In this document: one piece after another, positions 14,829-53,023 of the stretch
Layout of the letters: each line of letters opens with the position of its first letter
How positions within the stretch are numbered: the stretch's first letter is position 1
Notes under the pieces: model-generated
Database searches by the model: none
What the model saw: the letters and a program-made list of their open reading frames with translations, nothing else
What the model was told of the DNA's origin: nothing
Made by a program: the position numbers and the translations under genes
Assembly (NCBI GenBank): GCA_047602405.1
Contig: JASGHJ010000002.1
Coordinates: forward strand, 2,048,001 to 2,112,000
Direction of reading: 5' to 3'
From: Anaeromyxobacteraceae bacterium
GTDB lineage: Bacteria; Myxococcota; Myxococcia; Myxococcales; Anaeromyxobacteraceae
DNA: 64,000 nt

Positions 14829-14844
14829 TGCGGGAGGTGCCCCG
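14829..14844. promoter_or_regulatory. Candidate enhancer (UAS) site upstream of the hemA promoter
   Basis: TGCGGGAGGTGCCCCG, 13/16 identical to the site at 41171, starting 54 nt beyond the promoter. Confidence 0.45.
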
Positions 14845-15092: not shown

Positions 15093-15383
15093 ATGGCGAA
15101 CAAGTTCAACGGCGGCGCGAAGGTCGACGGCGGCTACTACTGGAACCCGAAGAACTGGGAGGTCGAGATCGTCCCCGACGGCGGCGGCACGCTCGCCGCG
15201 CCGGCGGACGTGAGCTACCTCAAGATCCCGCTCCTCGTCGCGATCCCGGCCAGCGTCACCCTCGGCGCGTCGTTCATGATGGCGCTCCCGATGATCGGGT
15301 TCATCGTCTTCGTGTCCGGGCTCTTCCAGCGGCTGTCCGGGAAGTCGGCGGTGACGACGCCGGGCGCGGGCGCGAAGCACTAG
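15093..15383 (+). CDS. Small hypothetical membrane protein (96 aa)
   Basis: [25 protein letters not shown] followed by a hydrophobic hairpin; strong GC3 codon bias. Confidence 0.75.
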
Positions 15384-17051: not shown

Positions 17052-17115
17052 CGGCGGGCCGCAGGTTAGCGCGGAACCGGCGGGCGGACGACCCGTGCTA
17101 GGCTCGGCCGCACGG

Positions 17116-18996: not shown

Positions 18997-19002
18997 GCGC
19001 GC

Positions 19003-19896: not shown

Positions 19897-19930
19897 GCGT
19901 CCGGCTTGTAGCCGCGCGGGCGGCCCCGGG

Positions 19931-21763: not shown

Positions 21764-21821
21764 GGGGGGCGGAGTATACCGTCGGCCGGTCCCGCGCCGG
21801 GCGGCATGGTATGGAGGCGGC

Positions 21822-23135: not shown

Positions 23136-23146
23136 AATGCGCGGGC

Positions 23147-25438: not shown

Positions 25439-25451
25439 GATGCGCGCGCCG

Positions 25452-26393: not shown

Positions 26394-27153
26394 CGGGCGC
26401 GAGCCTCCGCCCCTGCCCCGAGAGCCGCGCAGGTGACGTCAGCCCCCACCGCGCGAGCCGGAACTCGAGCGCAGTGCCGAGCACGCCGAAGCCGTACTTC
26501 ACGCTCCGGCGGAAGTTGATGGAGGACGCCTCGGCGAAGTAGCGGGTCGGACAGGTCAGCTCGCCGATGTCGAAGCCGAACCAGAGCGCCTGCGCGAGCA
26601 TCTGGTTGTCGAAGACGAAGTCGTCCGAGTTCTCCTCGAGCGGCAGGGTCTCGAGGAGCTTGCGCGAGAACGCCCGGTAGCCGGTGTGGTACTCGGCGAG
26701 CTTGTAGCCGAGGAGCAGGTTCTCGGTGAACGTGAGCGTCCGGTTCGCGACGTACTTCCAGAGCGGCATGCCGCCCCGGCGGGCGCCGACGCCGAGGATG
26801 CGCGAGCCGAGCACGCAGTCGAAGTGCCCACTCGCGATCATCGACGCCATCGCGGGCACCAGCTTCGGCGAGTACTGGTAGTCGGGGTGGACCATCACCA
26901 CGAGATCCGCCCCTCGGGCGAGCGCCTCGCGGTAGCAGGTCTTCTGGTTGCCGCCGTAGCCGCGGTTCTTCGGGTGCACGATGACGTGCAGCCCGAGCCG
27001 GGCGGCGACCTCCTTCGTCGCGTCGCGGCTCGCGTCGTCGACGACGATGACGTCGTCCACGACCGAGCGGTCGAGCTCGGCGACGGTGCGCTCCAGCGTC
27101 TTCTCGGCGTTGTACGCGGGCATGACGACGCACACCCGCTGGCCGACGATCAT
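26383..27153 (-). CDS. GT2 glycosyltransferase (DPM1-like polyprenol-phosphate glycosyltransferase)
   Basis: [41 protein letters not shown]. Confidence 0.9.
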
Positions 27154-27170: not shown

Positions 27171-28058
27171 CTACTGGACGATGCGGAAGAGCTGCACCCG
27201 GTTGTTGTACCGGTCGGCGAGGAACAGGACCCCCTCCGCGTTCGCGCAGAGCTGCCCCGGGTAGTTCACGAGCCCCTCGCTCCAGCCGAGGCCGAGCTGG
27301 CGCCCCAGGAAGCCGCCGTCCGGCCCGAGGGCCACCACGCCGCTCCCGTTCTGGTCGACGACGAGGAGCTTCCCCTGCACCACCGCGAGGTAGGTGCCGA
27401 AGCTCATCCGCTCCTGGAGCCCCTGCGCGAGCGGCTTCAGCGCGGCCGCGGACTTCTCGGCGGAGTACAGCACGCCGCCCACGGCGTCGAGCGCGTAGAT
27501 CGTGCCCGAGGCGTCCATGGCGACGTCGGTGAACATGGCCTTGCCCTTCGGCAGCTCGAGCGAGCGGGCGACGGTGCCGCCCGCGCCCAGGACGAGGACC
27601 TTGCCGGTGGTGAGTTCGAGCGCGAGCACCTCGTCGGCCGGGCCGATCTTGAACGCCCCGACGCGCGCGCCCTCGACGCCCGGGAACTCGACCACCCCGC
27701 CGAAGCCGCCGTTCGCGTCCATCTTCACGATCCGGTGGGTCTTGCCGTCGAGCGCGAAGAGGTTGCCCTTCGAGTCGAGCTGCAGCCGGAGGGGCACGGT
27801 GAGCTGCGGGAGCTTCAGCTCCGTGCCACCCCCGAGGCGGCCGTCGCGGGCCGTGAACGTGAGCAGCCGGGCGTTGCCGGTGTCGGCGACCACGAAGCGC
27901 CCGTCGTCGGTGCAGGCCACGCCCTCGGGCGCGACCAGCGGGCCTTCCTTGGCGTCCGTGTAGACCGTGCCGGCGTGGACGAACGTGAAGCTCGCGGCGC
28001 GGGCGGTGCCGCCGGCGAGCAGCAGGGCGACAGCGAGGAGTGCGCGGGTCACGGTCAT
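27171..28058 (-). CDS. Secreted NHL-repeat beta-propeller protein, last gene of the osc-like cluster
   Basis: Signal peptide MTVTRALLAVALLLAGGTARA; PEGVA...FVVADTGNARL; YPGQL...LFLADRYNNRVQLF. Confidence 0.85.
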   Translation of the reverse strand: MTVTRALLAVALLLAGGTARAASFTFVHAGTVYTDAKEGPLVAPEGVACTDDGRFVVADTGNARLLTFTARDGRLGGGTELKLPQLTVPLRLQLDSKGNLFALDGKTHRIVKMDANGGFGGVVEFPGVEGARVGAFKIGPADEVLALELTTGKVLVLGAGGTVARSLELPKGKAMFTDVAMDASGTIYALDAVGGVLYSAEKSAAALKPLAQGLQERMSFGTYLAVVQGKLLVVDQNGSGVVALGPDGGFLGRQLGLGWSEGLVNYPGQLCANAEGVLFLADRYNNRVQLFRIVQ

Positions 28059-29329
28059 CACCTCCGGTACCGCTCGTGGCACTTCGTGCAGAGCTCGCTC
28101 GTCGTGGCGTACGGCATCATGTGCTTGTACTCGGTGCCGTGCGACCGGTGGCACGAGAGGCAGTTCACCTGCAGGTTCTTGTTGCGCGGGTCCTGCACCT
28201 TCGGGCCCATCGGGTGCGAGGAGTGCTTCAGCCAGTCGTGGCAGGTGCCGCAGAGTTCGGGCACGTCGGCCTTCTTGAGCAGCAGCGCCGTGTTGCCGGC
28301 GTGCGGCTCGTGGCAGGCCGAGCAGTCGCCGTCCTTCACGGGAGCGTGCTTCGTCGGCGAGAGGGTCTGCCGCTTCACGGTGTCGGCGTGGCAGCTCCCG
28401 CAGACCTGCACCTGGTTGGCCTTCACGAGCGCCTTGCCCCGCGAGGCGTGGGGCGAGTGGCACGAGAGGCACGCCTGGCCCTCGACGACCGGACGGTGCA
28501 CCCGGCCCTGGTCGAGCATCTTCGTGACCTGGCTCGCGTGGCAACCCTTGCAGAGGTCGAGCCCGACCTTCTTGGTCGAGAGCGCGTCCGGCGCGGTGGG
28601 CGCCGGATGGCACTGGGTGCACATCGCCTTCGCCACCGGCGCGTGGACCGTGTCGTAGAGGATGCCGCGCACGTTCGAGCCGTGCGGATCGTGGCAGCTC
28701 GTGCACGTGGACTTCTCGACCTTGTAGCCCTGGTGCGCCTTCGAGAAGAGCGGCGAGGTCGTCTTGTGGCAGCCCAGGCAGAGTGCCGGCTCGGCCGCCT
28801 TGAGGATGCCCCGGGCGGCCGCGGAGCCGTGCGGGTCGTGACAGGCGCCGCAGCCCTCGGTCACGGGCCGGTGCTTGAACTTCGCCTTCGCCGCCGCCTC
28901 GACGACCGGCTTGTGGCACCCGGCGCAGAGCTCGGTCTCCGGCTTCAGGAGCACGTTCTTCACGGAGGAGGCGTGCGGGTCGTGGCAGGAGACGCAGCCT
29001 TTCTCCTTGATCACCGGGTGGGTGCTCACCGGCTTCGCGGGCACCACGTTCGCGTGGCAGGAGACGCAGGCCCCGTCGCCGGTGCGGGCGAGGAGCTTCC
29101 CGTGGTCGGCGGCGTGCGGGTTGTGACACCCCGTGCAGGCCCGCGCCTTCACCGGCGTGTGCACGAACGGCTTCTCGAGCGTCTTCTGCAGCTGCCCGCC
29201 GTGGCAGTCGATGCAGAGCTTGCCGTCGGCGCCGGGCTTCAGCTTGAACTTGGGGTTCGGCGCGGCGGCGAGGGCCGGGCCCGCGGCGAAGCCACAAGCA
29301 AGGGCGAGGGCGAGGATGCGGGTCTTCAT
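28058..29329 (-). CDS. 16-heme periplasmic cytochrome c (paired CXXCH repeats)
   Basis: Signal peptide MKTRILALALACGFAAGPALA; 16 CxxCH counted; H-x-P...CxxCHxPH repeat. Confidence 0.93.
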   Translation of the reverse strand: MKTRILALALACGFAAGPALAAAPNPKFKLKPGADGKLCIDCHGGQLQKTLEKPFVHTPVKARACTGCHNPHAADHGKLLARTGDGACVSCHANVVPAKPVSTHPVIKEKGCVSCHDPHASSVKNVLLKPETELCAGCHKPVVEAAAKAKFKHRPVTEGCGACHDPHGSAAARGILKAAEPALCLGCHKTTSPLFSKAHQGYKVEKSTCTSCHDPHGSNVRGILYDTVHAPVAKAMCTQCHPAPTAPDALSTKKVGLDLCKGCHASQVTKMLDQGRVHRPVVEGQACLSCHSPHASRGKALVKANQVQVCGSCHADTVKRQTLSPTKHAPVKDGDCSACHEPHAGNTALLLKKADVPELCGTCHDWLKHSSHPMGPKVQDPRNKNLQVNCLSCHRSHGTEYKHMMPYATTSELCTKCHERYRR

Positions 29330-29337
29330 GGGGCCCC

Positions 29338-31305
29338 TCACTTCTTCTTCTCCACGACGTGGCAGCTGTCGCAGTCCCGGGCCGCGAAGGGCGCGTGGAC
29401 CTTTGCCTTGAAGAACTTGGGGTCCTTCGAGGCGTGCGGGGTGTGGCAGCTCACGCAGTCCATCGCCTTCGGCTCGATGGCGAGGTGGGCGGCCGCGAAC
29501 TTCTTCTCCTTCGGGTCGTGGCAGTTGCCGCACATGTCCTGCACCGGCTCGACCGCGAGCGCCGCGAACTTCGAGGCGTGCGGCTGGTGGCAGGTCGCGC
29601 AGTCGGAGACCGGGTCGTGCGCCTTCTCGGCCGCGATCTTGTCCTTCAGCGTCTTGTGGCACGAGAAGCACAGGTCCGGGGTCTTCGCGAGGAGGAGCTT
29701 CTTCAGCCCCGCCTTGTGCGGGCTGTGGCACTTCGAGCACTGGCCCTGGTCGAACGCCGCGTGGACGCTCTTCTGACCGGCGACCTTCTTCACCTCACCC
29801 GCGTGGCACTTCGCGCAGAGGGCCTTCTCGTCGGTCACCAGCATGCCCTGCACGTTCGAGCCGTGCGGGTCGTGGCAGGTCAGGCAGTCGCCCTTCGCGA
29901 AGGGGCCGTGCTTCGTGCCGTTCCCGGCCGCCACCTCGGCCATGAGGTCGCCGTGGCACTTCTTGCAGAGCGCGGCGCCCGCGTCGCGGAGGAGGCTCGG
30001 GTTCGCCGTGGCGTGCCCGTCGTGGCAGACGTCGCAGGTGCCGTCGAGCACCGGCTTGTGCGTGTAGGCGCGCACGAACCGGGTCTCGGCGTCCTTGTGG
30101 CAGGAGTAGCAGACCCGGTCGCTGCGGGACTTCAGCATCCCCGGGAAGGCCGAGCCGTGCGGGTCGTGACAGGCGATGCACTGCTCCTTCTTGAACGGCT
30201 GGTGCACGACCTTCTGCTTCAGGTCCTCCTTCGACTTCGCGTGGCAGGCCTGGCACTGCGCCGTGGCGGCCGCCTTGAGGAGGGCCGGCTCCTTCGAGGC
30301 GTGCGAGGCATGGCAGCTGCCGCAGCCCTGCGCGGAGTCGACCGGCTTGTGCGGCACGACCTTCTTGTCCGTCACTCCGGCGTGGCAGCGGGCGCAGAGG
30401 GCGTTGCCCGCCGCGAGCGTGAGCTTCGGGGAGGCGGAGGCGTGCGGATCGTGGCACCGGATGCAGTCGCCGGCCTTCACCGGTGCGTGGACCACCTTCT
30501 GCCCACCGGTGACGTCCTTCTCGGAGTGGCAGTCGGCGCAGAGCTTCCCGCCCTGGGAGGTGGTGGCGAACGGCTTCCCGGAGCGGGCGGGCTGATGGCA
30601 CGACGAGCAGGTCGCCGAGCTCACCGGGTCGTGAACCGAGGCCTTGAGGAGCGCCTTGCCGTCGGAGGCGTGCGGGTCGTGGCACTTGCTGCAGCTCACG
30701 ACCGGGTACTCCTCGTGCGCCTTCTTGAAGGCGCCCGACGAGGCGGAGTGGCAGGAACCGCACAGCGCGGCCTCCGCCTTCACGAGGAGCTGCGGCTGGT
30801 CGGAGGCGTGCGCGACGTGGCAGACCGCGCAGCCCTGCTTCTTGAGCGGCTCGTGCACCACCCGCTTCTCGAACGGCTTCCTGTCGTGACAGTCGTAGCA
30901 GGAGGCCGCGCCCTCGGCCTTGAGCATGAACTTCGCGTTCGAGCCGTGGGCGTCGTGGCACTGCGTGCACTTGCCCCCCTTGAGCACGGCGTGGACGTGC
31001 TTCTTGTCCATGCCGAGCTTCTCGGGCTTGTGGCAGCCGTAGCAGAGCTGGCTGCCCGGCTGCTTGAGCGCGAGCTTCGGCACGATGCCGTGCCGCAGGT
31101 GGCAGTCCTCGCAGCGCTTCTCCTTCACGGAGGTGTGCAGGACCTTGTTGCCGAGGTACCGGTCGGCGAACTTCTTGTGGCACTCCAGGCAGTCCTTCGT
31201 CTTGAAGGTCCGCTGCTGGGCGCCGGCGGCGGCCGGGACCGCGAGCGCCAGCGCGAGCGCCGCCCAGAGGCCGGTTCGAAGATTGGCGTGCACGGTGGCT
31301 CCCAC
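29338..31305 (-). CDS. 26-heme periplasmic cytochrome c (paired CXXCH repeats)
   Basis: Signal peptide; 26 CxxCH counted. Confidence 0.93.
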   Translation of the reverse strand: MGATVHANLRTGLWAALALALAVPAAAGAQQRTFKTKDCLECHKKFADRYLGNKVLHTSVKEKRCEDCHLRHGIVPKLALKQPGSQLCYGCHKPEKLGMDKKHVHAVLKGGKCTQCHDAHGSNAKFMLKAEGAASCYDCHDRKPFEKRVVHEPLKKQGCAVCHVAHASDQPQLLVKAEAALCGSCHSASSGAFKKAHEEYPVVSCSKCHDPHASDGKALLKASVHDPVSSATCSSCHQPARSGKPFATTSQGGKLCADCHSEKDVTGGQKVVHAPVKAGDCIRCHDPHASASPKLTLAAGNALCARCHAGVTDKKVVPHKPVDSAQGCGSCHASHASKEPALLKAAATAQCQACHAKSKEDLKQKVVHQPFKKEQCIACHDPHGSAFPGMLKSRSDRVCYSCHKDAETRFVRAYTHKPVLDGTCDVCHDGHATANPSLLRDAGAALCKKCHGDLMAEVAAGNGTKHGPFAKGDCLTCHDPHGSNVQGMLVTDEKALCAKCHAGEVKKVAGQKSVHAAFDQGQCSKCHSPHKAGLKKLLLAKTPDLCFSCHKTLKDKIAAEKAHDPVSDCATCHQPHASKFAALAVEPVQDMCGNCHDPKEKKFAAAHLAIEPKAMDCVSCHTPHASKDPKFFKAKVHAPFAARDCDSCHVVEKKK

Positions 31306-31306
31306 C

Positions 31307-33029
31307 TCAGGCGCCGATGCGGGTGACGAAGACCTTGACCGGGAAGACGCCGCGAAGCTTGTCGGCGTACTCCTGGATCGCCTTCCCGACCGCCTCGACG
31401 TAGAGCTTCTTCGTGATCTCGGCCTCGACCTGCTCGAACGGCTGCTGGCTCGGCGGGGTGACGTCGGCCACTCGGATGGCGAAGTGCTGGTCCTCCGTGG
31501 CGTAGAGCCGGACGTCGCCCGGCTTCGCGCCGTCGAGGAGCTTCCGGAGCTCGTCGGTCATGGCCTTCGCCGAGACGACCCCGTCGCTCAGTACAACCGT
31601 GGCCTTATTGGGATCGAGCTGCCGCTCGCTGTTCTGGCGCAGCCAGCGGACGTCGGTGCCCGCGCCGAGCTTCGCCACGGCCGCCTCCGCGTCCTTGCGA
31701 GCCCCGAACCCGACGGTCTCGAGCTTGTAGAAGACCGGGAAGGCGTAGTCGGCGAGGTGGGCGTCGTAGTGCTTGCGCGCCGCGCCCTCCTCGACCTTCA
31801 CCTCCGGCGCGATCATCTTCCGGAGGAAGTAGCCGAAGACGATCTGGTCCTCGTAGGCGGACCGCGCTCGTTTGTACTCGGCGGAGTCGACGATGCCGAG
31901 CTCCTTCGCGCGGATGGGGACGACCCGGAGCGACACGAGGGCGTCCATCGTGAGCTCCTTCAGGCGGTTGACCTTCTTCTCGCGGGCCCCCCGGTCCATG
32001 CCGTGGAAGAGCTGCTTCTCGAGCGCCTCGGTGAGGTCGCCGACCGTGATGGGCGCCCCGCCCTTGAAGGTCGCGAGGACCCGCTTGTCGGTCTTGAGCT
32101 TCTCCCAGCCCTTCGCGTCGTAGTTGACCTTCTTCACGAGCGCCCAGTCGATCTTGGCGTCCGCGTCCGTGAGCTTCTTGTAGTAGGCCTCGAGCGTGAG
32201 CTTGTTCTGGCGGGCGACAGACTGCTTCTCGGCCTCGGCCTTCGCCTCGGCGGACTCGCCGAAGCGGAATCTCGTCCACCCGGGCCACCACGAAGCCGTC
32301 CTGGAGCTTGACGGCGTCGGTCAGGTGCCCCGCCTCGGTGAGCTGCACGGCGCCGAGCACCGCGGGGGCGAGATCCTTCCGCCCCGCCCAGGAGGACTCG
32401 AGGCCCCCGGTCGCCTTCTTGGCCTCGAGCGCCACGCCCGCGAGCGCGCCGAAGTCCTTGCCGTCGATGACGGCCTTGCGGAACACCTGGGCCTCGTCGA
32501 GCGTGGGGAACTTGATGGAGCGGAGCTTCCACTCCTTCACGGCCTCCCGGTAGAGCTTCTCGACCTCGAGCGCGTCCGGCTTCACGCCCTTCAGCGCGTC
32601 CCGCTGCACGCGCTCGCGGAGGGCCTCCTTCTCCCAGGACTCGACCGCGAACCTCACTTCGTCGAGGTCCTGGATGCCGGACTGGTGCGCCTCGGCGAGG
32701 AGGAGCCGGACGTTGAGGAGCCGCTGCAGCATCGGCTCGAACTCCATCTTCGCGGGCTTCGCGCCGCCCTTGTGCTCCTGGTGCGAGGCCGCCATGGCCT
32801 CCGCGAGCATCGAGAGGGTCACCTGCTCGTCGCCCGCCGTCGCGATGACGGTGTCGGCGAAGCGCTGGTCGAAGAGCGGCAGGTTCACCGAGGCGACCAT
32901 GTCGGGGGCGCCGCCGGTGCCCGCCGCGGCGGGCGGCGTGAGCGCCACGGGCTTCGAGGAACCGGCGCCCGGCATGGCGAGCGCGAGCCCGGGGGCGAGC
33001 GCGAGGACGGCGAGAAGGCGATTCGACAC
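31307..33029 (-). CDS. SurA/PrsA-like parvulin PPIase chaperone (OscH-like), +1 frameshift near 32268
   Basis: GTG 33029 with signal peptide; two SurA-N/rotamase-like halves split between ORFs 31605..33098 and 31307..32137. Span 3n+1; GAGATTCCGC corrected to GAGATCCGC restores VDEIRFGESAEAK. Confidence 0.75.
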
Positions 33030-33093
33030 GGTGGTCTCCCTGCGGCGCCGTCGCGCGGCGCGGTGTTCGGTGCGAGTCGGTGGCCTCGGCGTG

Positions 33094-33109
33094 TGCAACC
33101 CGTGTGCCC
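33094..33109 (-). promoter_or_regulatory. Internal sigma54 promoter for the chaperone/26-heme/16-heme/NHL genes
   Basis: Minus strand GGGCACACGGGTTGCA (GG-N10-GC). Confidence 0.72.
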
Positions 33110-33161
33110 TACCCCGGTCGCAGGGCCCGTTTCAACGGTATGAATTTACTCGGCTTCGAGT

Positions 33162-33177
33162 TGGGCCATAGCACCCA
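33162..33177. promoter_or_regulatory. Candidate UAS palindrome
   Basis: TGGGC-CATAGC-ACCCA, starting 53 nt beyond the sigma54 promoter. Confidence 0.55.
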
Positions 33178-33257
33178 CTCGCACGCGGTGCGCCGCCCGG
33201 CCCCACCCCCCGAAGCTTCTGCGCGGCCCGACGGAAAACCGAGGTGCAAGCGGTGTC

Positions 33258-34376
33258 TCAGCGCGAAGGCGGCGGGCGCGCCGCCATCATCCCATCGATC
33301 GCCTTTCGCACCATCCGGCAGGCCGCCTCGTGCGCGGTGAACACCCGCCCCTGCTTGAAGAGCGTCTCGCCGTCGTCGCCGCGGTTGTGCGAGGTGGACT
33401 GCCAGACGATGGCGCCGGTGTGGCCGTCGAGGACCGAGAGCGTGAAGGAGAGCCGCAGCGCGGCGGGCGTGCCCGGATCCTCGAAGTCGAAGATCTCGCC
33501 CGCCACCATGAGGTCCGCCTCCATCGCGCCGAGCAGCGTCCGGGCCTGCTCGAGGTTGACCCCGCCCTGCAGGATGACCCGGTACCGCAGGAGCAGGTCC
33601 CGCGTGACGCCGGGCTCCACCACGCGGAAGCGCTCCTGCGAGAGGAGGCCCTGCACCGCGGCGAGCGCGAGCGCCTCGCCAGCGCCGCGCACGCGCGAGT
33701 GGTTCACCCACGGCAGCACCACCACCTTGGGCGCGCGCACCTTCCCGAGGAAGGTGCTGCGGAACGGGATCTTCGGTGCGTAGGTCGGATCCGAGCCACA
33801 GCGCGGCGCGCGCGGACCGGCCCCCGAGAGCGCGCGGGCGAGCGAGCGGGACAGGCCCGCCGCGGCCTGCTCCTCGAGGCGCTCCACCTCGTGCACCAGC
33901 CCCAGCTTGAAGAGCCCCGGGCTCTCGTCACCGGCGCGGCCGAAGCCATCCATCCAGAGGATCGTGGGCTCCGGGCCGGTGGAGACGAGCCGCATCGAGA
34001 GCGCGATCCGCGGTGGATCTCCGGGCGTGTACTGCTCGAGCACCGTCGCGACGATGCCGTCCACGGCGAGCTCGTCCGCCGCGGTGCTCGCCGCGAGGGG
34101 GTCGACGGCGCCGGTGTACCGGATCCGGTGGCGCTCCAGGAACGCGTCCACCGCCGCGCCCGTGACGACCTCGATCCCCTGGCGGGCGAGCGCGGACTCG
34201 AACGTCGCGAGCAGGCGGCGCACCGGAACCGCGACCCCGCTCACGTTCTCGATCGGCAGGAGCGCGACGCGGGTGACCGCGCGCGCCTCGTCGCCGCGCG
34301 CCGGCCCCCCCGCCAGCGCGGCCGCGAGGGCGACGGCCGCGAGCGCCCTACTTGAAGAGCTGGTCGAGGAGATCAT
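33258..34376 (-). CDS. Secreted protein with two tandem PelC/CsgG/LpoB-like domains (OscG-like)
   Basis: RVALLPIEN and KVVVLPWVN repeats; ...DGHTGAIVW; position in the cluster. Confidence 0.7.
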   Translation of the reverse strand: MISSTSSSSRALAAVALAAALAGGPARGDEARAVTRVALLPIENVSGVAVPVRRLLATFESALARQGIEVVTGAAVDAFLERHRIRYTGAVDPLAASTAADELAVDGIVATVLEQYTPGDPPRIALSMRLVSTGPEPTILWMDGFGRAGDESPGLFKLGLVHEVERLEEQAAAGLSRSLARALSGAGPRAPRCGSDPTYAPKIPFRSTFLGKVRAPKVVVLPWVNHSRVRGAGEALALAAVQGLLSQERFRVVEPGVTRDLLLRYRVILQGGVNLEQARTLLGAMEADLMVAGEIFDFEDPGTPAALRLSFTLSVLDGHTGAIVWQSTSHNRGDDGETLFKQGRVFTAHEAACRMVRKAIDGMMAARPPPSR

Positions 34377-34929
34377 CCACCGCCGCCTCGGTCACGTCGT
34401 TGAGCGGCTCGCCCCCGCTGCCGAGGAGCCGCCCGGAGAGCGTGACCCCGCCCTTCGTCGTCTGGCCCGCCCAGACCACCCTGCCCGTGGCGGTCTCCTG
34501 GAGCTGCACCGAGAGCGAGATGGTGTTCGCGGCCGCAGCGCCCTGGCGGACCTCGCCGTACTCCTTCACCGTCCCGGTGAAGATCGCGTCGGCCTTGAGG
34601 GTCTTCCCGAGCTTCATGACCTCCTCGACCGAGGGTGCCACCGGGTTCGCGACCCCCGCGATGCCGATGCCCCGGACCACCTCGCCGCCGGGCAGCACGT
34701 AGAAGGCGTTCGTGGCGAGGAGCATGGTCGCGAAGACGTCGCGCACGCGCTCACCGGCGAGCGTGTCGCGCGCGAGGTTCGAGAACGGCAGCACCGCCAC
34801 GGTCTTCACGGCCCCGAAGTCCATGTTCCGGTCCATGTAGGTCCGCTTCTGCGCCTTGGAGGCGGCGCAGGAAAGCCCCCCTGCGGCGAGGGCGAGAACG
34901 AGCGCGATGGTGGAGAGGCGACGTGGCAT
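34348..34929 (-). CDS. PelC/CsgG-like lipoprotein (OscF-like)
   Basis: Lipobox GGLSC; TVAVLPFSN...AGER; ADAIFTGTVKEY; ETATGRVVW. Confidence 0.78.
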   Translation of the reverse strand: MPRRLSTIALVLALAAGGLSCAASKAQKRTYMDRNMDFGAVKTVAVLPFSNLARDTLAGERVRDVFATMLLATNAFYVLPGGEVVRGIGIAGVANPVAPSVEEVMKLGKTLKADAIFTGTVKEYGEVRQGAAAANTISLSVQLQETATGRVVWAGQTTKGGVTLSGRLLGSGGEPLNDVTEAAVDDLLDQLFK

Positions 34930-34952
34930 GGGCTTCACTCCGGGTGGGTATC

Positions 34953-37167
34953 CTATCGTATCGCGACGAAGAGGTTCGTGATGAACGACCAGCCGTCCGA
35001 ATCGACCGACGGTCCACGCGTGGCCTCGACCGCATAGCTCGAGTCGATGTAGACCCCGGGCCGCAGCGTGAGCCGCGCCCCGGGGCCCCAGCTGCGCTGA
35101 CGCTCGTCGATCGAGCCGTTCAGCGTCTCGGAGTACCCGAAGCGTACGTTGAGCGCCCCGCCCCTCAACGGAGTCGCGTTCAGCGTGAACGAGGAGAGCG
35201 TGGCGACCTTGCCGGCCTCGTAGGAGCGGGCGAGCGAGCCGCCGAGCGAGAGGGCCGGGAACGGGGCCCAGGCGACGTTACCCTCGATCCGGGATCGCCG
35301 GGTCCACGGCCCGCCGTTCGCGCTGTTCGAGGCAACGGAATAGGACGCGCCGAAGGTGGCGGTCCGGTGCGGGGAAACGTCGCAGGCCACGCCCGCCAGG
35401 GCCGAGCGCGCGACACCCGAGCGCGCCCCGCGCCCGACGCTCGCCGCGCCATTCGTGGAAAGGCTGATGCCGTCAAAGGGCTCGGCGCGCATGAGCCCGC
35501 CGCCGCTCGCGCCCCAGGTGCGGCCGTAGCGGGTCTCGCCGGTCGTGGCGCCAACATTGAGGGAGCCCCCTGCAGTCGGGATGGGCTCGAAGTTGAGGTT
35601 CGCGCTCGCCTGGGTCTGGCCGACGTGCCCGTCCGCGCCCGACGAGTCGGTGCGCCCGAGCCGTGCGAGCCACGAGGCCCGTGGGCCGAGGCTGCGCCCG
35701 GCACCGAGCCCACTGGCGAGTGCCCATGTGCTCCGGGTGCCGTGCGTGACGAAGGCGCTCGTGTCGAACGCGAGGCCCCAGCGCGGGTCCAGGAGGAGCC
35801 TGAGGCCGGCGTTGAGCGTCCCTCCTGTTTCCCCACTGTGCCCCTTCACCTCGTCCGCGGGGCGCCCGTAGTAGGCCTGCAGCTCCGTGACCTGGAGCTC
35901 GCGGTAGGCCGGATCGCTCGTGACGCCGTCCGCCAGCGGGAGGGTCACGAGCTTCACGTAGCGGGCGCGCACGGTGGCGATCTCGGATCTCGAAGCGCGC
36001 GTCGAACGCGGGGAACGTCACGCGCCCGCCGGCCGCGGGGTCCACCGTCTCCCGCTGCGTCCAGAGGACGTTGTCGTCGGAGGTCCAGACGGTCCAGGCG
36101 AGCCGCTGCCAGACGCTCTCGGGGAGCATCCGGTCGACCCAGACGTAGAGGCGGTTGATCGGGGTGGAGGCGTCCGGGAAGCGCAGGCCCAGCTCCCGTC
36201 GGCGGAGCCGGTCGGCGAGGGGCTGGCCGTAGCCGAGGTCGAGCCCGGCGGTGCCCGTGAAGTCCCCGTCGATGAGGCGGGCGTTCGTGACGAGCCGCGA
36301 GGTGGCCTCCGTGGAGAGGTCGCCCGCGGCCGGCACGTGCGCCAGCCCCTCCGCCGCGAGCTGGAGGGTGAGCACCGTCGCGCCCGGCTGGGCGGCCACC
36401 CAGCTGTCCCGCCGCCCCACCGTGTAGGAGGCGCTGGCGCTGCCGCGGCGGTCCCAGAAGCGCGTGGACCAGAGTGCCGCGAAGCTTTCGCTCGCATCCT
36501 TCGTGGATATGCTGGAGATTTGGTCGTCGGACGAGCCGTAGCGGACCGACGCCCGCAGATCGAGGTCCCGGAGCTCGCGGTAGGCCGTGGCAACGGTCGC
36601 CGTAAACGTCTGCTGGTCGTCGGTCCGCCGCGCCTCGTCATGCCGGTCGGTGAGGCCGAGTGCGAGATCCACGGTGGGCCCGCCCTCCGGCCGCCAGCCT
36701 GCGCTCGCACTCCAGACGTCCCGCATTCGGATCGGTCCGGATCTCCGCGCCACCCCCTCCGTGTCTTGAGCACCCCAAGCCTGCTGGCGGTCGTAGGAGA
36801 GTTGGCCAGCGAGGATGGGTGGACCAAACCCGATCCGGAGGTTGCCGAGCCAGGTCTCTCGGTCCTGGCGCGTATCGAGGCCATCCAGGGACCCGTCCAG
36901 GTGGGCCGCCGCGAAGGAACCCAGGCCAGAGAGCGTGAGGTACGGGTAGATCGACTTGTCGAAGGTGAGGCGGTACTGCTGCGTGAGCGCGGCCTCGTCC
37001 TGCCTGTAGGCCGTGCCGTCCGCGCCGCGGGTCTCGTGTTCGGAGAGCCGGTACGAGGGCTCGAGCGTGAGCGCCCACGAATCGCCGCGCGCGAGCGCCG
37101 GCGCGGCCGCGAGGGCGCACCCCAGCAGCGCTGCGCAGGCACCGGGCGCGTGGCTCCGGACCCTCAC
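34953..37167 (-). CDS. Outer-membrane beta-barrel (OscE-like) with an inserted soluble domain, +1 frameshift near 35985
   Basis: Signal peptide; alternating amphipathic strands in ORFs 35473..37167 and 34953..35972. Span 3n+1; removing one C from GAGATCCGAG gives FEIEIATVRARYVKL. Confidence 0.72.
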
Positions 37168-38578
37168 CGCCGCTCACCCCCAACGACGAGCCGCCCGGGC
37201 TCGCCGGCCACGTCCACGAGCCCGAGCACCTGGCGCGCGGCGAGCCCCACCACCGCGATGGCCCCTCGCGAGGGGAGCGCCACGAAGAGCACGTTCTGCG
37301 CGTCGTCGAGGGCGAGCTCGCCGGGGACGTCGGGCAGCCGGACCCCACCCGCCGGGACGAGCGAGAAGGGGTCGAACAGAATCCAGCCGATCGTCGTCGC
37401 CCGCGGCCACCCAGAGGTAGTCGGTCCGCGGCTCGACGAAGATCGCGCGGGTCGCCGCGCCGACGTAGACGCGCGCCGAAGCCGCGCCTCCCGGGAGCGT
37501 GAGCGCGGTGACGTGGGGCGCGCCCCGGTGAAGCACGAACAGCCGGGTCGCGGCCCGGTTGAGCTGGACCCGCACCGGCTCCGCCTCCGTCGCGTACGTC
37601 GCCGCGACCGCGCGGTTCGGGAGATCGAGCACGGTCACCGAGGCCGAGCGCGCATTCGGGACGTAGGCGAGGCGGCCGGTCCGGTCGAGCTGGAGCCGGC
37701 CCGGCTCCTCGCCGGTCCGCACCCGGGCGAGCTCGAGCCCGCCGCGGGGATCCAGGAACGCCACCGAGGCCGCGCCCGCGCATGCCACCACGAGGCTCGC
37801 GCCGTCCGGAGAGACGAGGAGGTCGGCCGGCGCGTCGCCCGGCTGCAGCCGCTCCCGGGAGAGCTCGGCGCCGCTCAGGAGAATCCAGCACCTGCACCTC
37901 GTCGCGGCGCGGCAGCGACACGAACACCCGCTGCGACCTTGCATCGAGGGCCACGCCGCCGGGCTCGGCGTCGGTGCCGAGCGCGGCCACCACCTCCCGG
38001 CGCAGCCTGTCGACGAGGACGACCCGGCGCTCACCGGGGGTGAGCACCGCCGCGACGGCGGCCGGATTGGGCGCCTGTGGCTCGAACACCGCGAACCGGG
38101 GCGAGAACGCCATCGCGCCCTCGAGCGCGCGTGAGACCTCCAGCGAGGCCCACCGCACGAGCGGCCGCCCCGCCTCGATGGAGAAGGGCGCCTCCAGCCG
38201 GACCGGCTCTCCCACCGAGAGGTCGCTCCGCCCGGCGTCGCCCTGGAGCGCCGCACCGCGCGCCTGCACGAGGAGGCCCGCGTAGCTGCCCGCCGGCAGG
38301 TGGCCCCGCGCGAGGAGCCGCTGGCTGCGGGTGTCTCGCCCCGAGAGGTCCGAGACCGCGACCTCGAGCGGCACCGCCGTGCCGTCCGCCCTCACCGCGG
38401 CGACCGCGCCCAGGGAGAACGAGAGCCGGGCGGCGTCGGGCGGGAGCGGCTGCACGTAGAGGAGGAGCGTCCCCTCTCCGGCCCCGGGACCCGCCCGCCG
38501 CGCGGCGACCGTGGCGCAGCCGGCGACGAGCACGGCCGCGAGGGGCAACAGCGCGAGGCACAGCGTGGGCTTCTGCAT
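37164..38578 (-). CDS. Lipoprotein with a YncE/YVTN-type beta-propeller (OscD-like), two +1 frameshifts near 37883 and 37381
   Basis: Lipobox LVAGC; repeats EPGGVALD..RVFVS, SPDGASLVV, LAYVPNARSASVTVLD. Span 3n+2; both shifts are GATTC for GATC. The corrected stop overlaps the next GTG (GTGA). Confidence 0.75.
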
Positions 38579-38603
38579 TCCACCCTCCGTGTAGCGCGAA
38601 GCC

Positions 38604-38636
38604 AAAAAAAGGGGGCCGCCGAGGCGGCCCCCCTTC
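38604..38636 (-). terminator. Rho-independent terminator after omcS
   Basis: Minus strand gggggccgcc-tc-ggcggccccc followed by TTTTTTT. Confidence 0.85.
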
Positions 38637-38657
38637 TAACACACCATCAGGCCAGGC

Positions 38658-39971
38658 TTAGTCCTTCGCGTGGCACTTGTTGCACTGGCTGCGGGCCCAG
38701 GGGCCGAACGCGGTCGCAGGGCGGCCGTTGTACGCCGCCTGCTGCTGCGCCTGGCTGTAGCCGTAGTTGATCTTGTTCTCCGTCGTGGACGAGTCGTAGA
38801 TGGCCGCGTTGGAGGCGTCGGCGACCGTCATGAACTCGTTCAGGTAGAAGAACCGCAGCATGCTCTCGAAGCCCGACGCGTGCGCGCGGTGGCAGGAGAG
38901 GCAGGACACGTTGGTGGTCGTGTCCGCCGCCACCGGCGTGGCCGCGCGAGCCTTGAGGCCGTCGTACGTCGCGATCGAGCTGTCCGTGAAGCCGTACTCG
39001 AAGGGAACGAGCGTCGAGTAGCGATTCGCGGAGGCACCAAGAATGCCCGAGGTGATGTACCGGTTGTAGTTGTCAGCGATCTCGGCGGTCAGCTTCGCGC
39101 CGTTGCCAGCCGGGTGGCGGAGGCCGGCCATGCCGGAGGTGTAGGAGTTCTTGAGCATCTCCCCGTGGCAGTTCGCGCACCACTCGGAGGAGTTACGGCC
39201 GAGGGCGTACTGGGTCTGGGTCGTGCCCTCCGACCGGTTGTAGCTCGAGGCGACGACGGCGTCGAACACGGGAGCGGTGAACGCGAAGGAGCCCGTGAGC
39301 GACTTCGGCTGGTAGCCAACGCCGGCGAGGATGCGGTACACGCCGCGGGCGGAGACCCCGGCGATCGGGTTGGCGGAGTTCGTGTACGAACCCGAGCCGA
39401 AGATCGGGAGACCCGTCGAGGCGACGGAGCCGTCCGCGAAGCGGCGGTAACGGCCGTGCGGGTCGTGGCAGGACTGGCAGCCAAGGTTCGCGGCCGGGTA
39501 GGTGCCGCCCGGGGCGACCGTGAGCTCAGGGTCCGCGACGTAGCCGAAGTCCGCCGCGACCACGTTGTGACCGTGGCGCTCGCCGGGGTTGCCGTCCGCG
39601 GCGACCGTGCCGCGGATCGTCACGTTCATGGTCTTCTTCAGCCACGCGAAGTCGCCACCCGGGGTGTTCTCAACCGGCGTGGTGGTCGTGTCGTACGGCG
39701 TCACGCCAGCGGTGGAGATGTGGTAGCTGCTCGGCGCCGTGTCGGCCGCCTGGTGGCAGTTGAGGCACGAGCCGGACTGGTCGTTCGCCTTGAGGAGGTA
39801 CGGGCCCGTCCCCTGCGCGAAGGTGCGGCCGGTCACGTTCGGCGCGCCCTCGAACGAGTTGTGCATCGAGTGGCAGCCCTCGCACTCGGCGACGCCGCCG
39901 GAGTGGAAGGCGTACGCGTTCGTACCCACGAACGCGAGCATCGCCGCGACTGCAATCTTCATGAACTTCAT
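38658..39971 (-). CDS. omcS: OmcS-family hexaheme extracellular (nanowire) cytochrome c
   Basis: Signal peptide, then FHSGGVAECEGCHSMHNS; SCLNCH; PSSYHIST; TPGGDF; APGGTYPA; CHDPHGRYRRF; SEWCANCH; LRHPAGNGAK; CLSCHRAHASGF; ends CNKCHAKD. All match my recollection of Geobacter OmcS; 6 CxxCH. Confidence 0.93.
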   Translation of the reverse strand: MKFMKIAVAAMLAFVGTNAYAFHSGGVAECEGCHSMHNSFEGAPNVTGRTFAQGTGPYLLKANDQSGSCLNCHQAADTAPSSYHISTAGVTPYDTTTTPVENTPGGDFAWLKKTMNVTIRGTVAADGNPGERHGHNVVAADFGYVADPELTVAPGGTYPAANLGCQSCHDPHGRYRRFADGSVASTGLPIFGSGSYTNSANPIAGVSARGVYRILAGVGYQPKSLTGSFAFTAPVFDAVVASSYNRSEGTTQTQYALGRNSSEWCANCHGEMLKNSYTSGMAGLRHPAGNGAKLTAEIADNYNRYITSGILGASANRYSTLVPFEYGFTDSSIATYDGLKARAATPVAADTTTNVSCLSCHRAHASGFESMLRFFYLNEFMTVADASNAAIYDSSTTENKINYGYSQAQQQAAYNGRPATAFGPWARSQCNKCHAKD

Positions 39972-40046
39972 CTTGCTTCCCCTTGGTTGGTACTGCGGTC
40001 CCCTGCTTGCTTCGTTACTGCTGCTTGCTGCGCCTGTGATTCCCCC

Positions 40047-40070
40047 CGCCGCCCGTCCCACCGGGCGGCG
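40047..40070 (-). promoter_or_regulatory. Stem-loop in the intergenic leader of omcS
   Basis: cgccgcccg-tcccac-cgggcggcg; no U-tract on the coding strand. Confidence 0.5.
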
Positions 40071-40087
40071 TTGCTGCCTGAACCTGG

Positions 40088-41053
40088 TTACTGCGTGCTC
40101 GCTGCCGAGACCCTGAAGACGCTGACCCCGCGGTTCGCCCGCTGGGAGACGAAAAGCCGGTTGCCGGCCACGACGAGGTCGGTCGGGCCGACGAGGCTGT
40201 GGGGCCGGTTGCCGCGGTAGCCGAACTCCTTCACGAAGTTCAGCTTGCGGTCGAAGACGATGACCGCGTTCTTGAGGACGTCGGAGACGTAGATAAATCC
40301 GTCGTCCCCGCGCGCGATGGCAGAGAGCACCTGGAACTTGCCGGGGGCGCTGCCCTTCGTGCCGAATAGCATCGGCTTGCCTTGGGGCGGCGCGACGCAG
40401 GCCGCGAACATCGTTCTCAGCGTGAAGAGGACGTTCCCCTCCGCATCGACATCGAAGCCGCCCATCTCGGCCGAGGCCTTCTTCTCCTCGACCTTGCGCG
40501 GGTCGATCTCCTCGCCGGCGAAGTCGATCTCGTCGCGGAAGTCCCGCGCCGCGAAGACGGCGCCGTCGAGTCCGAAGCCGACGACCTTCAGCGCCATGAA
40601 GCTCGCGAGGTAGATGCGGTCGCCGCGCACCACGAGACCGTCCGGCTGGAAGCCCTCGAGGAAGCCCTTCGGTGCGCCGGCCAGCGTGAGCTCGCCCTTC
40701 ACCTCGCCGCGGAAGTTGCAGCGGGTGACGCGCCACCGCTCGGCGTTCACCGAGACCACCACGAGGTCGCCGCCCTCGAGCCCGGCGACGAGGCGGGGCA
40801 TCCCGAGCTCCTCGGAGGTGCCGAACGCGAACGTCTCCATGCCGGCCTGGTTGAAGACGCGGGCAACGCCGCCGGTGACCACCCAGAGCTCGCGGTTGCC
40901 GGCGTCCCAGGACAGCTTCGCCTCGGAGGCCTTGAGCAGGCCGGCCGGGCTCGCGAGGCCGTGGAGGTAGGCCACCTCGAACGCGCGGGCCGAGGCCGGG
41001 GCGACCGAGGTCGCGGCGGCGAGGGCGAGGGCGATGGAGGTCGTGGCGCGCAT
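40088..41053 (-). CDS. Secreted NHL-like beta-propeller protein upstream of omcS
   Basis: Signal peptide MRATTSIALALAAATSVAPASARA; FGTKGSAPGKF, IYVSD, EFGYRG, PTDLVV..LFVSQ. Confidence 0.82.
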   Translation of the reverse strand: MRATTSIALALAAATSVAPASARAFEVAYLHGLASPAGLLKASEAKLSWDAGNRELWVVTGGVARVFNQAGMETFAFGTSEELGMPRLVAGLEGGDLVVVSVNAERWRVTRCNFRGEVKGELTLAGAPKGFLEGFQPDGLVVRGDRIYLASFMALKVVGFGLDGAVFAARDFRDEIDFAGEEIDPRKVEEKKASAEMGGFDVDAEGNVLFTLRTMFAACVAPPQGKPMLFGTKGSAPGKFQVLSAIARGDDGFIYVSDVLKNAVIVFDRKLNFVKEFGYRGNRPHSLVGPTDLVVAGNRLFVSQRANRGVSVFRVSAASTQ

Positions 41054-41381: not shown

Positions 41382-42377
41382 CTATCCACGGTGCGTGAAC
41401 GTACCGTCGCCCCAGGTCGCCTCGCGTACCACGTACAAGGGGCGCCCCTTCACCTCCTCGAAGATCCTCCCGACGTACTCCCCGAGGATCGCGAGGCCGA
41501 GCAGGTTGGCGCCGCCGACGACGGCCACGATGACCACGAGCCCCGTCCAGCCGGGCACGGTCTCGTGGAGGAAGTACTTGGCCACGACCGCGTACCCGCC
41601 GTAGCCGAGCGCGAAGAGCGCGGTGAGCGTCCCCACGAGCCCGATGAGCTTCACCGGCACGATCGAGAACGACAGGGCCGCGTTCCAGGCGAGCTTCGCC
41701 ATCTTCCAGAAGGGGTACTTCGTCTCCCCGTGCAGCCGGGCGGCCCGCGCGTAGCGGACGGCGGTCTGCGGGTATCCCACCCAGGCGAACATCCCCCGGA
41801 CGAACCGGTGGACCTCGTTCATCCGGAGGACGGTGTCGAGGCAGCGCCGGGAGACGAGCCGGAAGTCGCCGGCGTCCACCGGAAGCGCCGCGTGCACGAA
41901 GCGGCGCATGAGCCGGTAGAACGCCCAGGCCGTGAGCCGCTTGAAGGTGCTCTCCCCTGCCCGCTCCGCGCGCTGCCCGTAGACGACGTCGTAGCCGTCA
42001 CGGTAGTGGGCGACCATCTCGGTCACCACCTCGAGCGGGTCTTGCAGGTCGGCGTCGAGGATCACCACCGCGTCGCCGCGCGCCACCGCCATGCCGGCGG
42101 TGATGGCGCTCTGGTGCCCGAAGTTGCGCGAGAAGCTCAGCCCGCGCACGCGCGGATCCTCCGCGGCCCACCGCTCGAGGAAGGCCCAGGAGCCGTCCCG
42201 CGAGCCGTCGTCGACGAGGACGACCTCGCACGCGAAGGGCACGGTCGCGAGCCACGCCTCGAGCGCGGCCCTCAGGTGCGGCAGCCCCTCCTCCTCCTGG
42301 TAGACCGGGAAGACGAGGCTCACGAGGCCCGGCATCGGCCGGGGCTGGAGCCCGGACGCGGGCGCGGGGAAGTTCAT
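41382..42377 (-). CDS. GT2 GtrB-like undecaprenyl-phosphate glycosyltransferase
   Basis: VFPVYQEE, VDDGSRD, FSRNFGHQSA, DADLQDP, GDFRL, RFVRG, two C-terminal TMs, GEYVGRIFEEVKGRPLY. Confidence 0.92.
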   Translation of the reverse strand: MNFPAPASGLQPRPMPGLVSLVFPVYQEEEGLPHLRAALEAWLATVPFACEVVLVDDGSRDGSWAFLERWAAEDPRVRGLSFSRNFGHQSAITAGMAVARGDAVVILDADLQDPLEVVTEMVAHYRDGYDVVYGQRAERAGESTFKRLTAWAFYRLMRRFVHAALPVDAGDFRLVSRRCLDTVLRMNEVHRFVRGMFAWVGYPQTAVRYARAARLHGETKYPFWKMAKLAWNAALSFSIVPVKLIGLVGTLTALFALGYGGYAVVAKYFLHETVPGWTGLVVIVAVVGGANLLGLAILGEYVGRIFEEVKGRPLYVVREATWGDGTFTHRG

Positions 42378-52990: not shown

Positions 52991-53023
52991 ACCGACATCG
53001 ATTGGCAGGTATACTCGCGGCGC

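Follow-up and report, generated by a model that had tools for sequence, protein, structure and literature searches.

An omcS-companion (osc) gene cluster with a single OmcS-family hexaheme cytochrome in an Anaeromyxobacter-type bacterium

Introduction

Whether a bacterium outside Geobacter carries an intact osc cluster, and what its hexaheme cytochrome would do there, is the question raised by ten genes in a 64,000-nucleotide stretch of DNA from an Anaeromyxobacteraceae bacterium (hereafter, the window). The osc (omcS-companion) cluster of Geobacter sulfurreducens comprises GSU2505–GSU2493 (Shen et al. 2025, Cell Chem Biol 32:239, as cited in passages of PMC13194489, PMC12977616, PMC13712944, and PMC12307469). 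An earlier note on the window had described the ten genes as a cluster of this type in a non-Geobacter host.

Gene content and order of the cluster

Open reading frame and homology analysis of the window revealed that the ten genes are co-oriented on the minus strand between positions 27171 and 41053, in the order first described (Table 1). We compared them with a G. sulfurreducens-type reference cluster, that of G076; the forward BLAST search covered 35.5 kb of G076. The G076 counterparts of all ten genes had their best match in the whole genome at this locus, in the same order, and for the first and the last NHL genes this was the only genome match. The eight-gene block GSU2500–GSU2493, as defined in section 6 of PMC12977616, was recovered in order downstream of the hexaheme gene by the same whole-genome queries. 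The CxxCH motifs of the three cytochromes number exactly 6, 26, and 16.

The first NHL gene had no Pfam family, and its match to an NHL-type NCBIfam model was below threshold; we identify it by its homology to the G076 gene that lies upstream of omcS. We infer that the label oscA denotes this GSU2505-type gene and that oscB denotes GSU2502. A chance origin of the locus is excluded because the hexaheme protein matches the OmcS structure (PDB 6EF8) with an E-value of 3e-133 and the same gene block is present in 36 of 78 fetched loci.

The locus is an osc cluster in an Anaeromyxobacter-type bacterium, a new instance of a published and widespread system. Both the cluster type and the correspondence of the flanking genes to osc genes, as proposed in the earlier note, were borne out. 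The window and the G. sulfurreducens cluster share the upstream NHL gene, the OmcS-family hexaheme gene, and the eight-gene block in identical order, with identities of 26%–61%. They differ in that the window (i) does not have the omcT, GSU2501/oscC-type, and 1035-aa GSU2502-type genes and (ii) comes from a myxobacterial host. The region of the cluster also carries a quinol-oxidase-like module and hemA.

Table 1. Positions of the ten cluster genes and the putative terminator in the window.
Feature	Position	Strand	Evidence
NHL-type beta-propeller with signal peptide; GSU2505 homolog	40088..41053	-	37% over 298 aa, E 1e-53 vs G076 gene
Hexaheme cytochrome of the OmcS family (437 aa, with signal peptide), putative subunit of a filament	38658..39971	-	PDB 6EF8, E 3e-133
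GC hairpin and U7, likely intrinsic terminator	38604..38637	-	RNA fold z -2.67; hairpin also in L001
OscD-like lipoprotein, LVAGC lipobox, YncE/YVTN-type propeller	37164..38578	-	35% over 465 aa vs G076, read through with X
OscE-like large outer-membrane beta-barrel with inserted domain	34953..37167	-	26% over 699 aa, E 2e-54 vs G076
OscF-like PelC/GNA1162-family lipoprotein, GGLSC lipobox	34348..34938	-	61% to G076; PF05643 above cut-off
OscG-like protein, two PelC-like domains	33258..34376	-	36% to G076; PelC profile matches
OscH-like SurA/PpiD-type chaperone, two parvulin domains	31307..33029	-	29% over 564 aa, E 2e-86; Rotamase_2 in both halves
OscI-like 26-heme paired-CXXCH cytochrome	29338..31305	-	26 CxxCH; 48–49% to G076
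OscJ-like 16-heme paired-CXXCH cytochrome, intact	28058..29329	-	16 CxxCH; 49% to G076
NHL propeller, GSU2493-type, last gene of block	27171..28058	-	PF01436; 38% over 295 aa vs G076

Frameshifts in three accessory genes

Four +1 frameshifts stand in the sequence as given, at approximately 37882 and 37380 in the propeller gene, at 35984 in the barrel gene, and at 32268 in the PPIase gene. Three of them (37882, 37380, and 32268) are located at GATTC; that at 35984 is not, and lies between two GATC motifs. The frameshifted genes have no in-frame stops after read-through. Across the genome, +1 shifts were found at 83 of 144 coding GATTC sites and 113 of 198 GAATC sites (57%–58%), compared with 0–1.7% at 14 control motifs. 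A relative (L001) whose genes are 84%–93% identical and intact does not have the extra base at any of the four sites, and a relative's contigs in sequencing run X1 omit one base at 32269 and 37380. Because of this genome-wide excess over the controls and the intact L001 genes, we consider that all four frameshifts probably arose as errors of assembly at GATC sites and that the genes are likely intact in the living cell. The concern, raised in the earlier note, that the frameshifts might be real is thus probably unfounded.

An error motif specific to RGATCY was considered and not sustained: this context was richer in shifts (71/102), but other flanks were also commonly shifted. No Dam-family methyltransferase was found above the Pfam cut-off in the genome, and a sequencing-run look-up returned one DNA run (share 0.06) and listed no RNA holder. 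Some 200 +1 insertions at GATC are detectable in the assembly, and pseudogene or programmed-frameshift calls in this genome need a check for that motif.

The hexaheme subunit

The hexaheme protein is 55% identical to OmcS of G076, 50% to OmcT, 47% to the OmcJ-like paralog, and 45% to the GSU2501-type paralog. Only one of six scored candidates in the genome belonged to the OmcS family, and tblastn agreed; the earlier note's claim of one such gene without an omcT-like paralog stands, with the hexaheme gene as the only OmcS-family gene in the genome. The omcT gene and the GSU2501-type and GSU2502-type genes are absent from the cluster, and no omcJ was found elsewhere in the genome; the nearest GSU2502-type homolog is a partial match (31%) located 0.8 Mb away. 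The oscD start lies 80 bp after omcS, with no genes between.

Comparison with the OmcS filament (PDB 6EF8/6NEF) revealed a full-length match of the mature proteins (416 aa in the window versus 407 aa), with six CxxCH motifs and the 12 best-conserved histidines in common. By contrast, 45% of positions differ, and the window protein does not have His247 and His53 of OmcS. Both positions are variable across the family, being His in 60 and 10 of the 103 aligned sequences, respectively, and a reading of the His247 loss as a ligand switch was rejected given the 60/103 occurrence.

In the alignment, 11 histidines are invariant in all 103 OmcS-family sequences and His16 is present in 95; the window protein has all 12 of these candidate heme ligands. 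The N-terminal inter-subunit His (CHSMH) expected by the earlier note is conserved, with the motif CEGCHSMH present and His16 retained. We take His16 to be the residue donated to the heme of the neighbouring subunit, a reading that agrees with conservation in an 11 + 1 pattern. The pattern also fits the ligation described for OmcS in the relevant part of PMC6584659, in which 11 axial histidines come from the same subunit and one from its neighbour. His16 is no marker of wire formers, because OmcT, GSU2501, and OmcJ carry it too.

The bacterium likely makes OmcS-type filaments, judging from the analysis of subunit and cluster together. The statement that the organism can polymerise nanowires was an overstatement, and what holds of it is an expectation: section 6 of PMC12977616 cautions that, of the four G. 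sulfurreducens paralogs, OmcS alone is known to assemble into a wire, and that authentic OmcS is not identifiable by sequence outside the genus.

The hairpin and U7 directly 3' of omcS, which fold with a z-score of -2.67 and are shared with L001, are likely an intrinsic terminator, which would lift the output of the subunit above that of the downstream genes; a consensus scan did not list them. Scans for sigma-70 and sigma-54 promoters gave no consensus match.

Predicted folds of the accessory proteins

The OscE barrel was modelled in the form of its intact L001 homolog (84% identical); the alignment-based AlphaFold2 model had a pLDDT of 90 and replaced a single-sequence model of the N-terminal half of the barrel (pLDDT 36.6). 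We counted approximately 28 long strands in the L001 model, and its fold matches were all membrane barrels. Among the matches listed, MtrB (6R2Q) had the highest TM-score, 0.36 (418 residues aligned, RMSD 7.9, Z 12.7), and many porins had Z-scores equal to or above that of MtrB. OscE had no sequence relative in the PDB and no sequence match to PelB. A CBM32 assignment of the inserted domain was discarded, the match (E 0.097) being too weak to count.

The OscF family profile matched PelC structures 5T11, 5T10, and 9H80 with E-values from 5e-8 to 6e-7; the OscG profile matched 5T0Z, 5T11, 9H80, and 4HRV; and the C-terminal half of OscG is homologous to OscF (hhalign 99.5%). OscE is an outer-membrane beta-barrel in the model, and the profile matches give OscF and OscG PelC-type folds, a likeness at the level of fold and not of assembly; OscF is predicted to be a ring former. 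An OscE–OscF complex prediction scored 0.00, with the controls not folded either, which is no evidence either way. The resemblance to PelBC (PDB 9H80) and the PelC dodecamer (5T11), namely, an outer-membrane barrel together with PelC-fold lipoproteins, is likewise at the fold level; OscE is much larger, by our own count of strands, and its cargo would be a heme protein.

Among the remaining products, the OscD-like protein matched TIGR03866 below the cut-off and has an intact L001 homolog (469 aa, 86%), and the OscH-like protein has an intact L001 homolog at 88%. OscI and OscJ matched the DmsE family (TIGR03508) with 296 and 225 bits, respectively, against a cut-off of 192. The genome also encodes cytochrome c assembly proteins (3 PF01578 matches) and plentiful other multiheme cytochromes (31 PF14522 matches).

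Distribution of the layout

The host groups with Anaeromyxobacter, and 19 of the 36 genomes of this genus that were compared have an OmcS homolog. All ten genes occur in complete genomes of the genus, as in G023, which has one OmcS match. A single hexaheme gene in the omcS slot is the commonest layout among the fetched loci (27 of 36 near-complete loci). Because the omcT, GSU2502-type, and GSU2501-type genes are missing from the slot in these 27 loci, they define the G. sulfurreducens layout and not the family. The description of the cluster as a minimal version applies relative to G. sulfurreducens and not in general. Nor is the instance unusual; the earlier note had taken the system type as described and this instance as possibly undescribed. 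OmcS homologs in Anaeromyxobacter dehalogenans are reported in a passage of PMC10954620, and section 6 of PMC12977616 gives the single-hexaheme pattern for Geobacter relatives also.

Phylogeny of the subunit

The window subunit falls in a 24-row clade (support 100/99) with Geomonas-type omcS-slot genes, to which it is 70% identical, outside the 7-row GSU2501 clade (100/100) and outside the OmcT/J clades. With its best identity to OmcS, it is a candidate ortholog of GSU2504. The backbone of the tree does not fix where G076 OmcS falls relative to this clade, and a sister relationship between the window clade and the GSU2501 clade was not rejected (p-AU 0.10). In Clade 3A Geobacter relatives, as presented in PMC12977616, only a GSU2501-like gene precedes the eight-gene block, and all 12 block-bearing genomes of the 33-genome survey given there encode a GSU2501-type gene. 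By contrast, the sole hexaheme of the window groups outside the GSU2501 clade.

Unlike the subunit, the accessory genes group with Anaeromyxobacter. Because the two trees conflict, the sequences point to a possible cross-phylum swap of the subunit gene in either direction; a test on direction gave a p-AU of 0.066, insufficient to choose. This conflict was not found stated in the literature searched; Shen et al. 2025 and its supplements lay outside that search and may show it.

Discussion

We regard the following reading of the locus as somewhat probable: the osc cluster is likely intact in the living cell, and its single hexaheme protein would be folded and exported through the barrel to stack up as an OmcS-type filament. 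The subunit would be exported to the periplasm, loaded with six hemes, and held by the SurA-like OscH; a PelC-like ring of OscF and OscG beneath the OscE barrel would pass it out; and each subunit would lend one N-terminal His to its neighbour's heme. Electrons would cross the periplasm by way of the 26- and 16-heme cytochromes to reach the base of the filament, and the terminator after omcS would provide many subunits per machine. Roles of this kind have been proposed for the Osc proteins, with OscH in folding, OscEFG in secretion, and OscD in morphology (a passage of PMC13194489 citing Shen et al. 2025). Two papers term a part of OscEFG in secretion a hypothesis or speculative.

The same barrel and cytochromes could instead form a porin–cytochrome conduit, in which OscE sheathes an MtrA/DmsE-like OscI or OscJ and the hexaheme protein acts as terminal reductase at the surface, as a monomer or a short oligomer, with no micrometre filament. 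We consider this unlikely. A large barrel whose cluster also encodes DmsE/MtrA-like paired-CXXCH cytochromes does resemble MtrAB (PDB 6R2Q) in family and fold, both cytochromes exceed the DmsE-family cut-off, MtrB leads the listed matches in TM-score, and PMC12977616 suggests that the block may have served secretion before there were OmcS wires. However, identity to MtrAB is 7%–8% with a low TM-score, and the barrel match is generic in view of the porins. The chaperone, ring, and propeller genes and the OmcS-type cargo have no Mtr counterpart; bulk export is a better match than a 1:1 conduit for a set with its own chaperone, a pair of PelC-like proteins, and a subunit-favouring terminator; and the subunit resembles a solved filament former over its whole length at 55% identity.

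Filaments might also be made, but for adhesion, the structure of a biofilm, or the local storage of charge and not for long-range respiration, with other cytochromes or pili passing electrons to minerals. The role of the filament in respiration is contested in PMC11077965, and G. sulfurreducens without OmcS, or without all three filament cytochromes, still reduces Fe(III) oxide, as stated in parts of PMC11077965 and PMC13194489; the patchiness of the family within the genus and the many other multiheme cytochromes of this genome agree with such a function. We nevertheless judge it quite improbable, given that the cluster encodes 42 hemes' worth of periplasmic cytochromes, that its region has the quinol-oxidase-like module and hemA, and that the title of Shen et al. 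2025 calls OmcS wires "essential." Least probable is a decaying locus with real frameshifts, three broken accessory genes, and no machine built: the frameshifts are there in the given sequence and no Dam-type methyltransferase above the Pfam cut-off accounts for GATC errors, but each of the four is an extra base (+1) that lies at a GATC motif or between two, with stop-free read-through, the same signature recurs at about 200 coding sites, and the close relative is intact.

The tree conflict allows a further, tentative proposal, to which we give somewhat less than even credence: the filament subunit may be cargo that can be exchanged. The subunit gene alone would have been transferred across phyla, so that Geomonas-type Geobacteraceae and the present Anaeromyxobacter lineage share an omcS clade, each keeping its own export machine. 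In that case the ten-gene cassette, which has a single subunit of the omcS-slot type and lacks GSU2501-, omcT-, and GSU2502-type genes, would be natural proof that a subunit and nine accessory genes suffice for a wire. If true, this would counter GSU2501 as the obligatory cargo of the block, and a subunit moving between phyla without its machine bears on exporter specificity.

For a published, widespread system, a single instance changes little. With just one OmcS-family gene, however, the genome is free of the paralogs that complicate work on G. sulfurreducens, and one deletion could test the role of the filament in respiration. The ten-gene cassette is also a compact candidate for heterologous expression, and the complete-genome relatives such as G023 offer the same.

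Organization and identity of the cluster

From the ORFs, frame plots and a reading of all three frames, we identified ten genes, all on the minus strand from 41053 to 27171, whose three cytochromes contain 6, 26 and 16 CxxCH motifs, in line with the layout proposed in the earlier note. The cluster is a real, coherent and ordinary member of the published osc family, common in its genus. GC content in the cluster region (69–74%) is near that of the genome (74%). The sole PDB sequence match of the hexaheme protein was OmcS (6EF8), with the whole mature chain covered (E 3e-133). As reference we chose the Geobacteraceae genome G076, whose omcS includes the 6EF8 sequence stretch and whose gene order agrees with GSU2505–GSU2493; GSU numbers and the letters A, B and D–H were assigned from gene order, anchored by oscC (GSU2501), oscI (GSU2495) and oscJ (GSU2494) as given in an excerpt of PMC13194489.

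The forward comparison, covering ORFs within 35.5 kb of G076, and the reverse search, in which the best match of every G076 counterpart in the whole 6.16-Mb genome fell inside the window, agree on the suspected likeness to the G. sulfurreducens omcS neighbourhood. All four G076 hexahemes matched one and the same gene genome-wide, which upholds the claim of a single omcS and no omcT-like paralog. For the GSU2502-type gene (1035 aa), the whole-genome search gave only a partial homolog (31%), outside the cluster. A GC hairpin followed by U7 lies directly after omcS both in the window and in L001, the locus of a close Anaeromyxobacter sp. with intact genes. The oscJ-type 16-heme gene of G076 changes frame near codon 290–300, with only 10 CxxCH in one ORF; an excerpt of PMC13194489 describes an oscJ frameshift (position 868) by which G. 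sulfurreducens strains differ. Should such a change be real in a strain that makes wires, OscJ would not be needed at full length.

Features of the cluster and its surroundings
Feature	Position	Strand	+1 frameshift (about)	Identity to G076 counterpart
Upstream NHL		-		37%
Hexaheme		-		55% omcS, 50% omcT, 47% omcJ-like, 45% GSU2501
Lipoprotein propeller (oscD)		-	37882, 37380	35%
Barrel (oscE)		-	35984	26%
F		-		61%
G		-		36%
PPIase (oscH)		-	32268	29%
26-heme cytochrome		-		48–49%
16-heme cytochrome		-		49%
Last NHL		-		38%
Two more RGAWTCY sites	9015, 49053
hemA	13460–15133
Glycosyltransferase-like genes	15405–27153, 41382–45264, 52991–58792
29-CxxCH cytochrome	45312–48941	-
HmcB/HmcC-like gene group	55550–62969	-

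Frameshifts

Four +1 frameshifts split three cluster genes; translated with X at each break, the propeller, barrel and PPIase are stop-free over 469, 737 and 572 residues. Both propeller breaks and the PPIase break read GATTC, an extra base inside GATC, and the barrel break has a GATC motif on either side, the two being spaced 7 bases apart. The extra base is absent from L001 at all four sites (DNA 87.6% identical over 12.5 kb). In a whole-genome codon-model test, the reading frame shifted by +1 at 83 of 144 GATTC and 113 of 198 GAATC sites within coding sequence (together 196/342 testable coding sites), against 0–1.7% for 14 control pentamers. Contigs from sequencing run X1, which belong to a relative and lend weak support, have one base fewer at 32269 and 37380. 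Motif-locked, one-directional insertions on a genome scale point to probable assembly errors, and real frameshifts, which would have told against the earlier note, are unlikely. We infer base modification in long reads as the cause of the GATC insertions; a bioRxiv abstract states that systematic errors arise from such modifications. Pseudogene or frameshift calls anywhere in this genome are suspect.

Heme-ligand histidines

OmcS takes 11 ligands from its own subunit and one from the neighbouring subunit (Filman et al., PMC6584659, excerpt). We aligned 103 intact family members, namely the window protein and 102 of the 110 six-CxxCH ORFs from the fetched loci. Eleven histidines (OmcS numbering 2, 13, 51, 110, 144, 147, 243, 257, 332, 335 and 404) are invariant, and His16 occurs in 95 members. 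The window protein retains all twelve, including His16, the presumed N-terminal inter-subunit histidine singled out earlier, which we take to be the ligand shared between OmcS subunits. Since OmcT, GSU2501 and OmcJ carry His16 as well, it is at most necessary for wire forming. The eight members lacking this presumed inter-subunit ligand (in loci L046, L047, L051, L055, L050 (807), L036 (8646), L068 and L074) are candidate chain caps, anchors or non-filament forms.

Predicted folds and proposed function

We modelled the intact barrel homolog of L001 (84% identical) with AlphaFold2 from an alignment of 36 rows; the model (pLDDT 90.1, pTM 0.65) has about 28 long strands by our own count and an inserted domain near residues 236–400. 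Its Foldseek and VIA matches were membrane barrels throughout, with low TM-scores, the top listed being MtrB (0.36). The family profiles of F and G match PelC-type chains 5T11, 5T10, 9H80 and 5T0Z (E 5e-8 to 9e-5) and also GNA1162, and F is homologous to the second half of G. The PPIase contains two parvulin domains, and both long cytochromes pass the DmsE-family cut-off.

By analogy, the cluster is probably an intact cassette that exports and assembles an OmcS-type filament, in which the Osc proteins would act as in a published proposal cited in an excerpt of PMC13194489; excerpts of PMC13712944 and PMC12307469 term these roles a hypothesis. A porin–cytochrome conduit with a non-filamentous hexaheme seems rather unlikely. 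Less likely still is a filament that is made but has no long-range respiratory role, for which the abstract of PMC11077965 may be cited. Decay of the locus, whose frameshifts point to assembly errors, appears very improbable.

Phylogeny of the subunit and the accessory genes

The loci were collected using the window's own protein, so that its kin are over-sampled, and the tested groups were defined post hoc from trees already seen. The subunit tree has 59 rows (42 of an earlier 102, with 60 more distant rows omitted, and 17 added Geobacteraceae). The window protein falls in a 24-row clade (100/99) together with 13 Geomonas-type omcS genes; neither the GSU2501 clade (100/100) nor the OmcT/OmcJ clade (97/97) includes it, and G076 OmcS lies in the unresolved backbone. 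Grouping Geomonas-type with G076-type omcS was rejected (p-AU 2e-8), and a union of the window clade with the GSU2501 clade was not (p 0.10). In the tree of the accessory genes D, F, G and H (32 rows; a quick method with SH-aLRT as the only support measure), by contrast, Geomonas-type machines stand apart from the window. This conflict agrees with the identities: to Geomonas locus L007, 70% for the subunit versus 26–52% for accessory genes; to same-genus locus L089, 40–43% versus 30–59%. The simplest reading of these sequences is that the subunit gene was transferred between the two phyla; as Anaeromyxobacter-type rows without Geomonas were not rejected as one group (p 0.066), either direction is possible.

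Distribution and variants

The closest named locus is L001 (84–93% amino acid identity across the genes). The accessory genes lie within a clade of 13 rows, and those of its members that have a name belong to the Anaeromyxobacteraceae or elsewhere in the Myxococcota. An OmcS-family match was obtained for 19 of 36 same-genus genomes (a single match in three of the 19) and for none of the order's 24 other genomes; among 22 same-genus genomes at least 90% complete, 14 matched the OscG profile. All ten genes are present, in three arrangements, in stretches taken from five genomes of the genus, four of which consist of a single contig. Of 78 loci retrieved by means of the subunit, 36 have the full set D to H (9 from Acidobacteriota, 7 each from Myxococcota and Thermodesulfobacteriota, 3 from Nitrospirota, remaining 10); in 27 of these a single hexaheme separates the upstream NHL gene from oscD, several having a second copy nearby. 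The earlier note considered the system known and this instance perhaps undescribed: the system is indeed published, and OmcS homologs of A. dehalogenans are already in print (PMC10954620, excerpt). The single-subunit layout and the proposed subunit swap are of secondary use and do not amount to a new kind of system.

Several variants were observed: (i) in near relatives (L002, L003, L004, L005, L017, L018, L019, L020, L039, L059 and L062), a second hexaheme gene that lies upstream of the first NHL gene in divergent orientation and is absent in the window and L001; (ii) circularly permuted osc operons in other same-genus genomes (L089, L090, L091, L093 and L032), with the first NHL gene at the block's end and, in some of them, another hexaheme after it; (iii) a divergent version in Ignavibacteria, Krumholzibacteria and Acidobacteriota (L066, L061, L075 and L063), with a subunit about 30% identical and no oscD or oscH match detected; (iv) five OmcS-family genes in 11 kb in L057 (Nitrospirota); and (v) two identical copies in L008 (Desulfuromonadales).

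Genes around the cluster

A 1209-aa cytochrome, which has 29 CxxCH motifs as well as GSu CxxxxCH...CxxCH repeats, is encoded 4 kb upstream of the cluster. Further away, genes for an HmcB/HybA-like Fe-S protein, an HmcC/NrfD-like membrane subunit, two glycine-cleavage-H-like proteins, a c7-type triheme and a 9-CxxCH cytochrome form a possible quinol oxidase module supplying periplasmic cytochromes. On either side of the cluster lie numerous genes for glycosyltransferase-like membrane proteins (GT2, GT87, PIG-V-like and several TMTC-like TPR proteins), which might glycosylate surface cytochromes.
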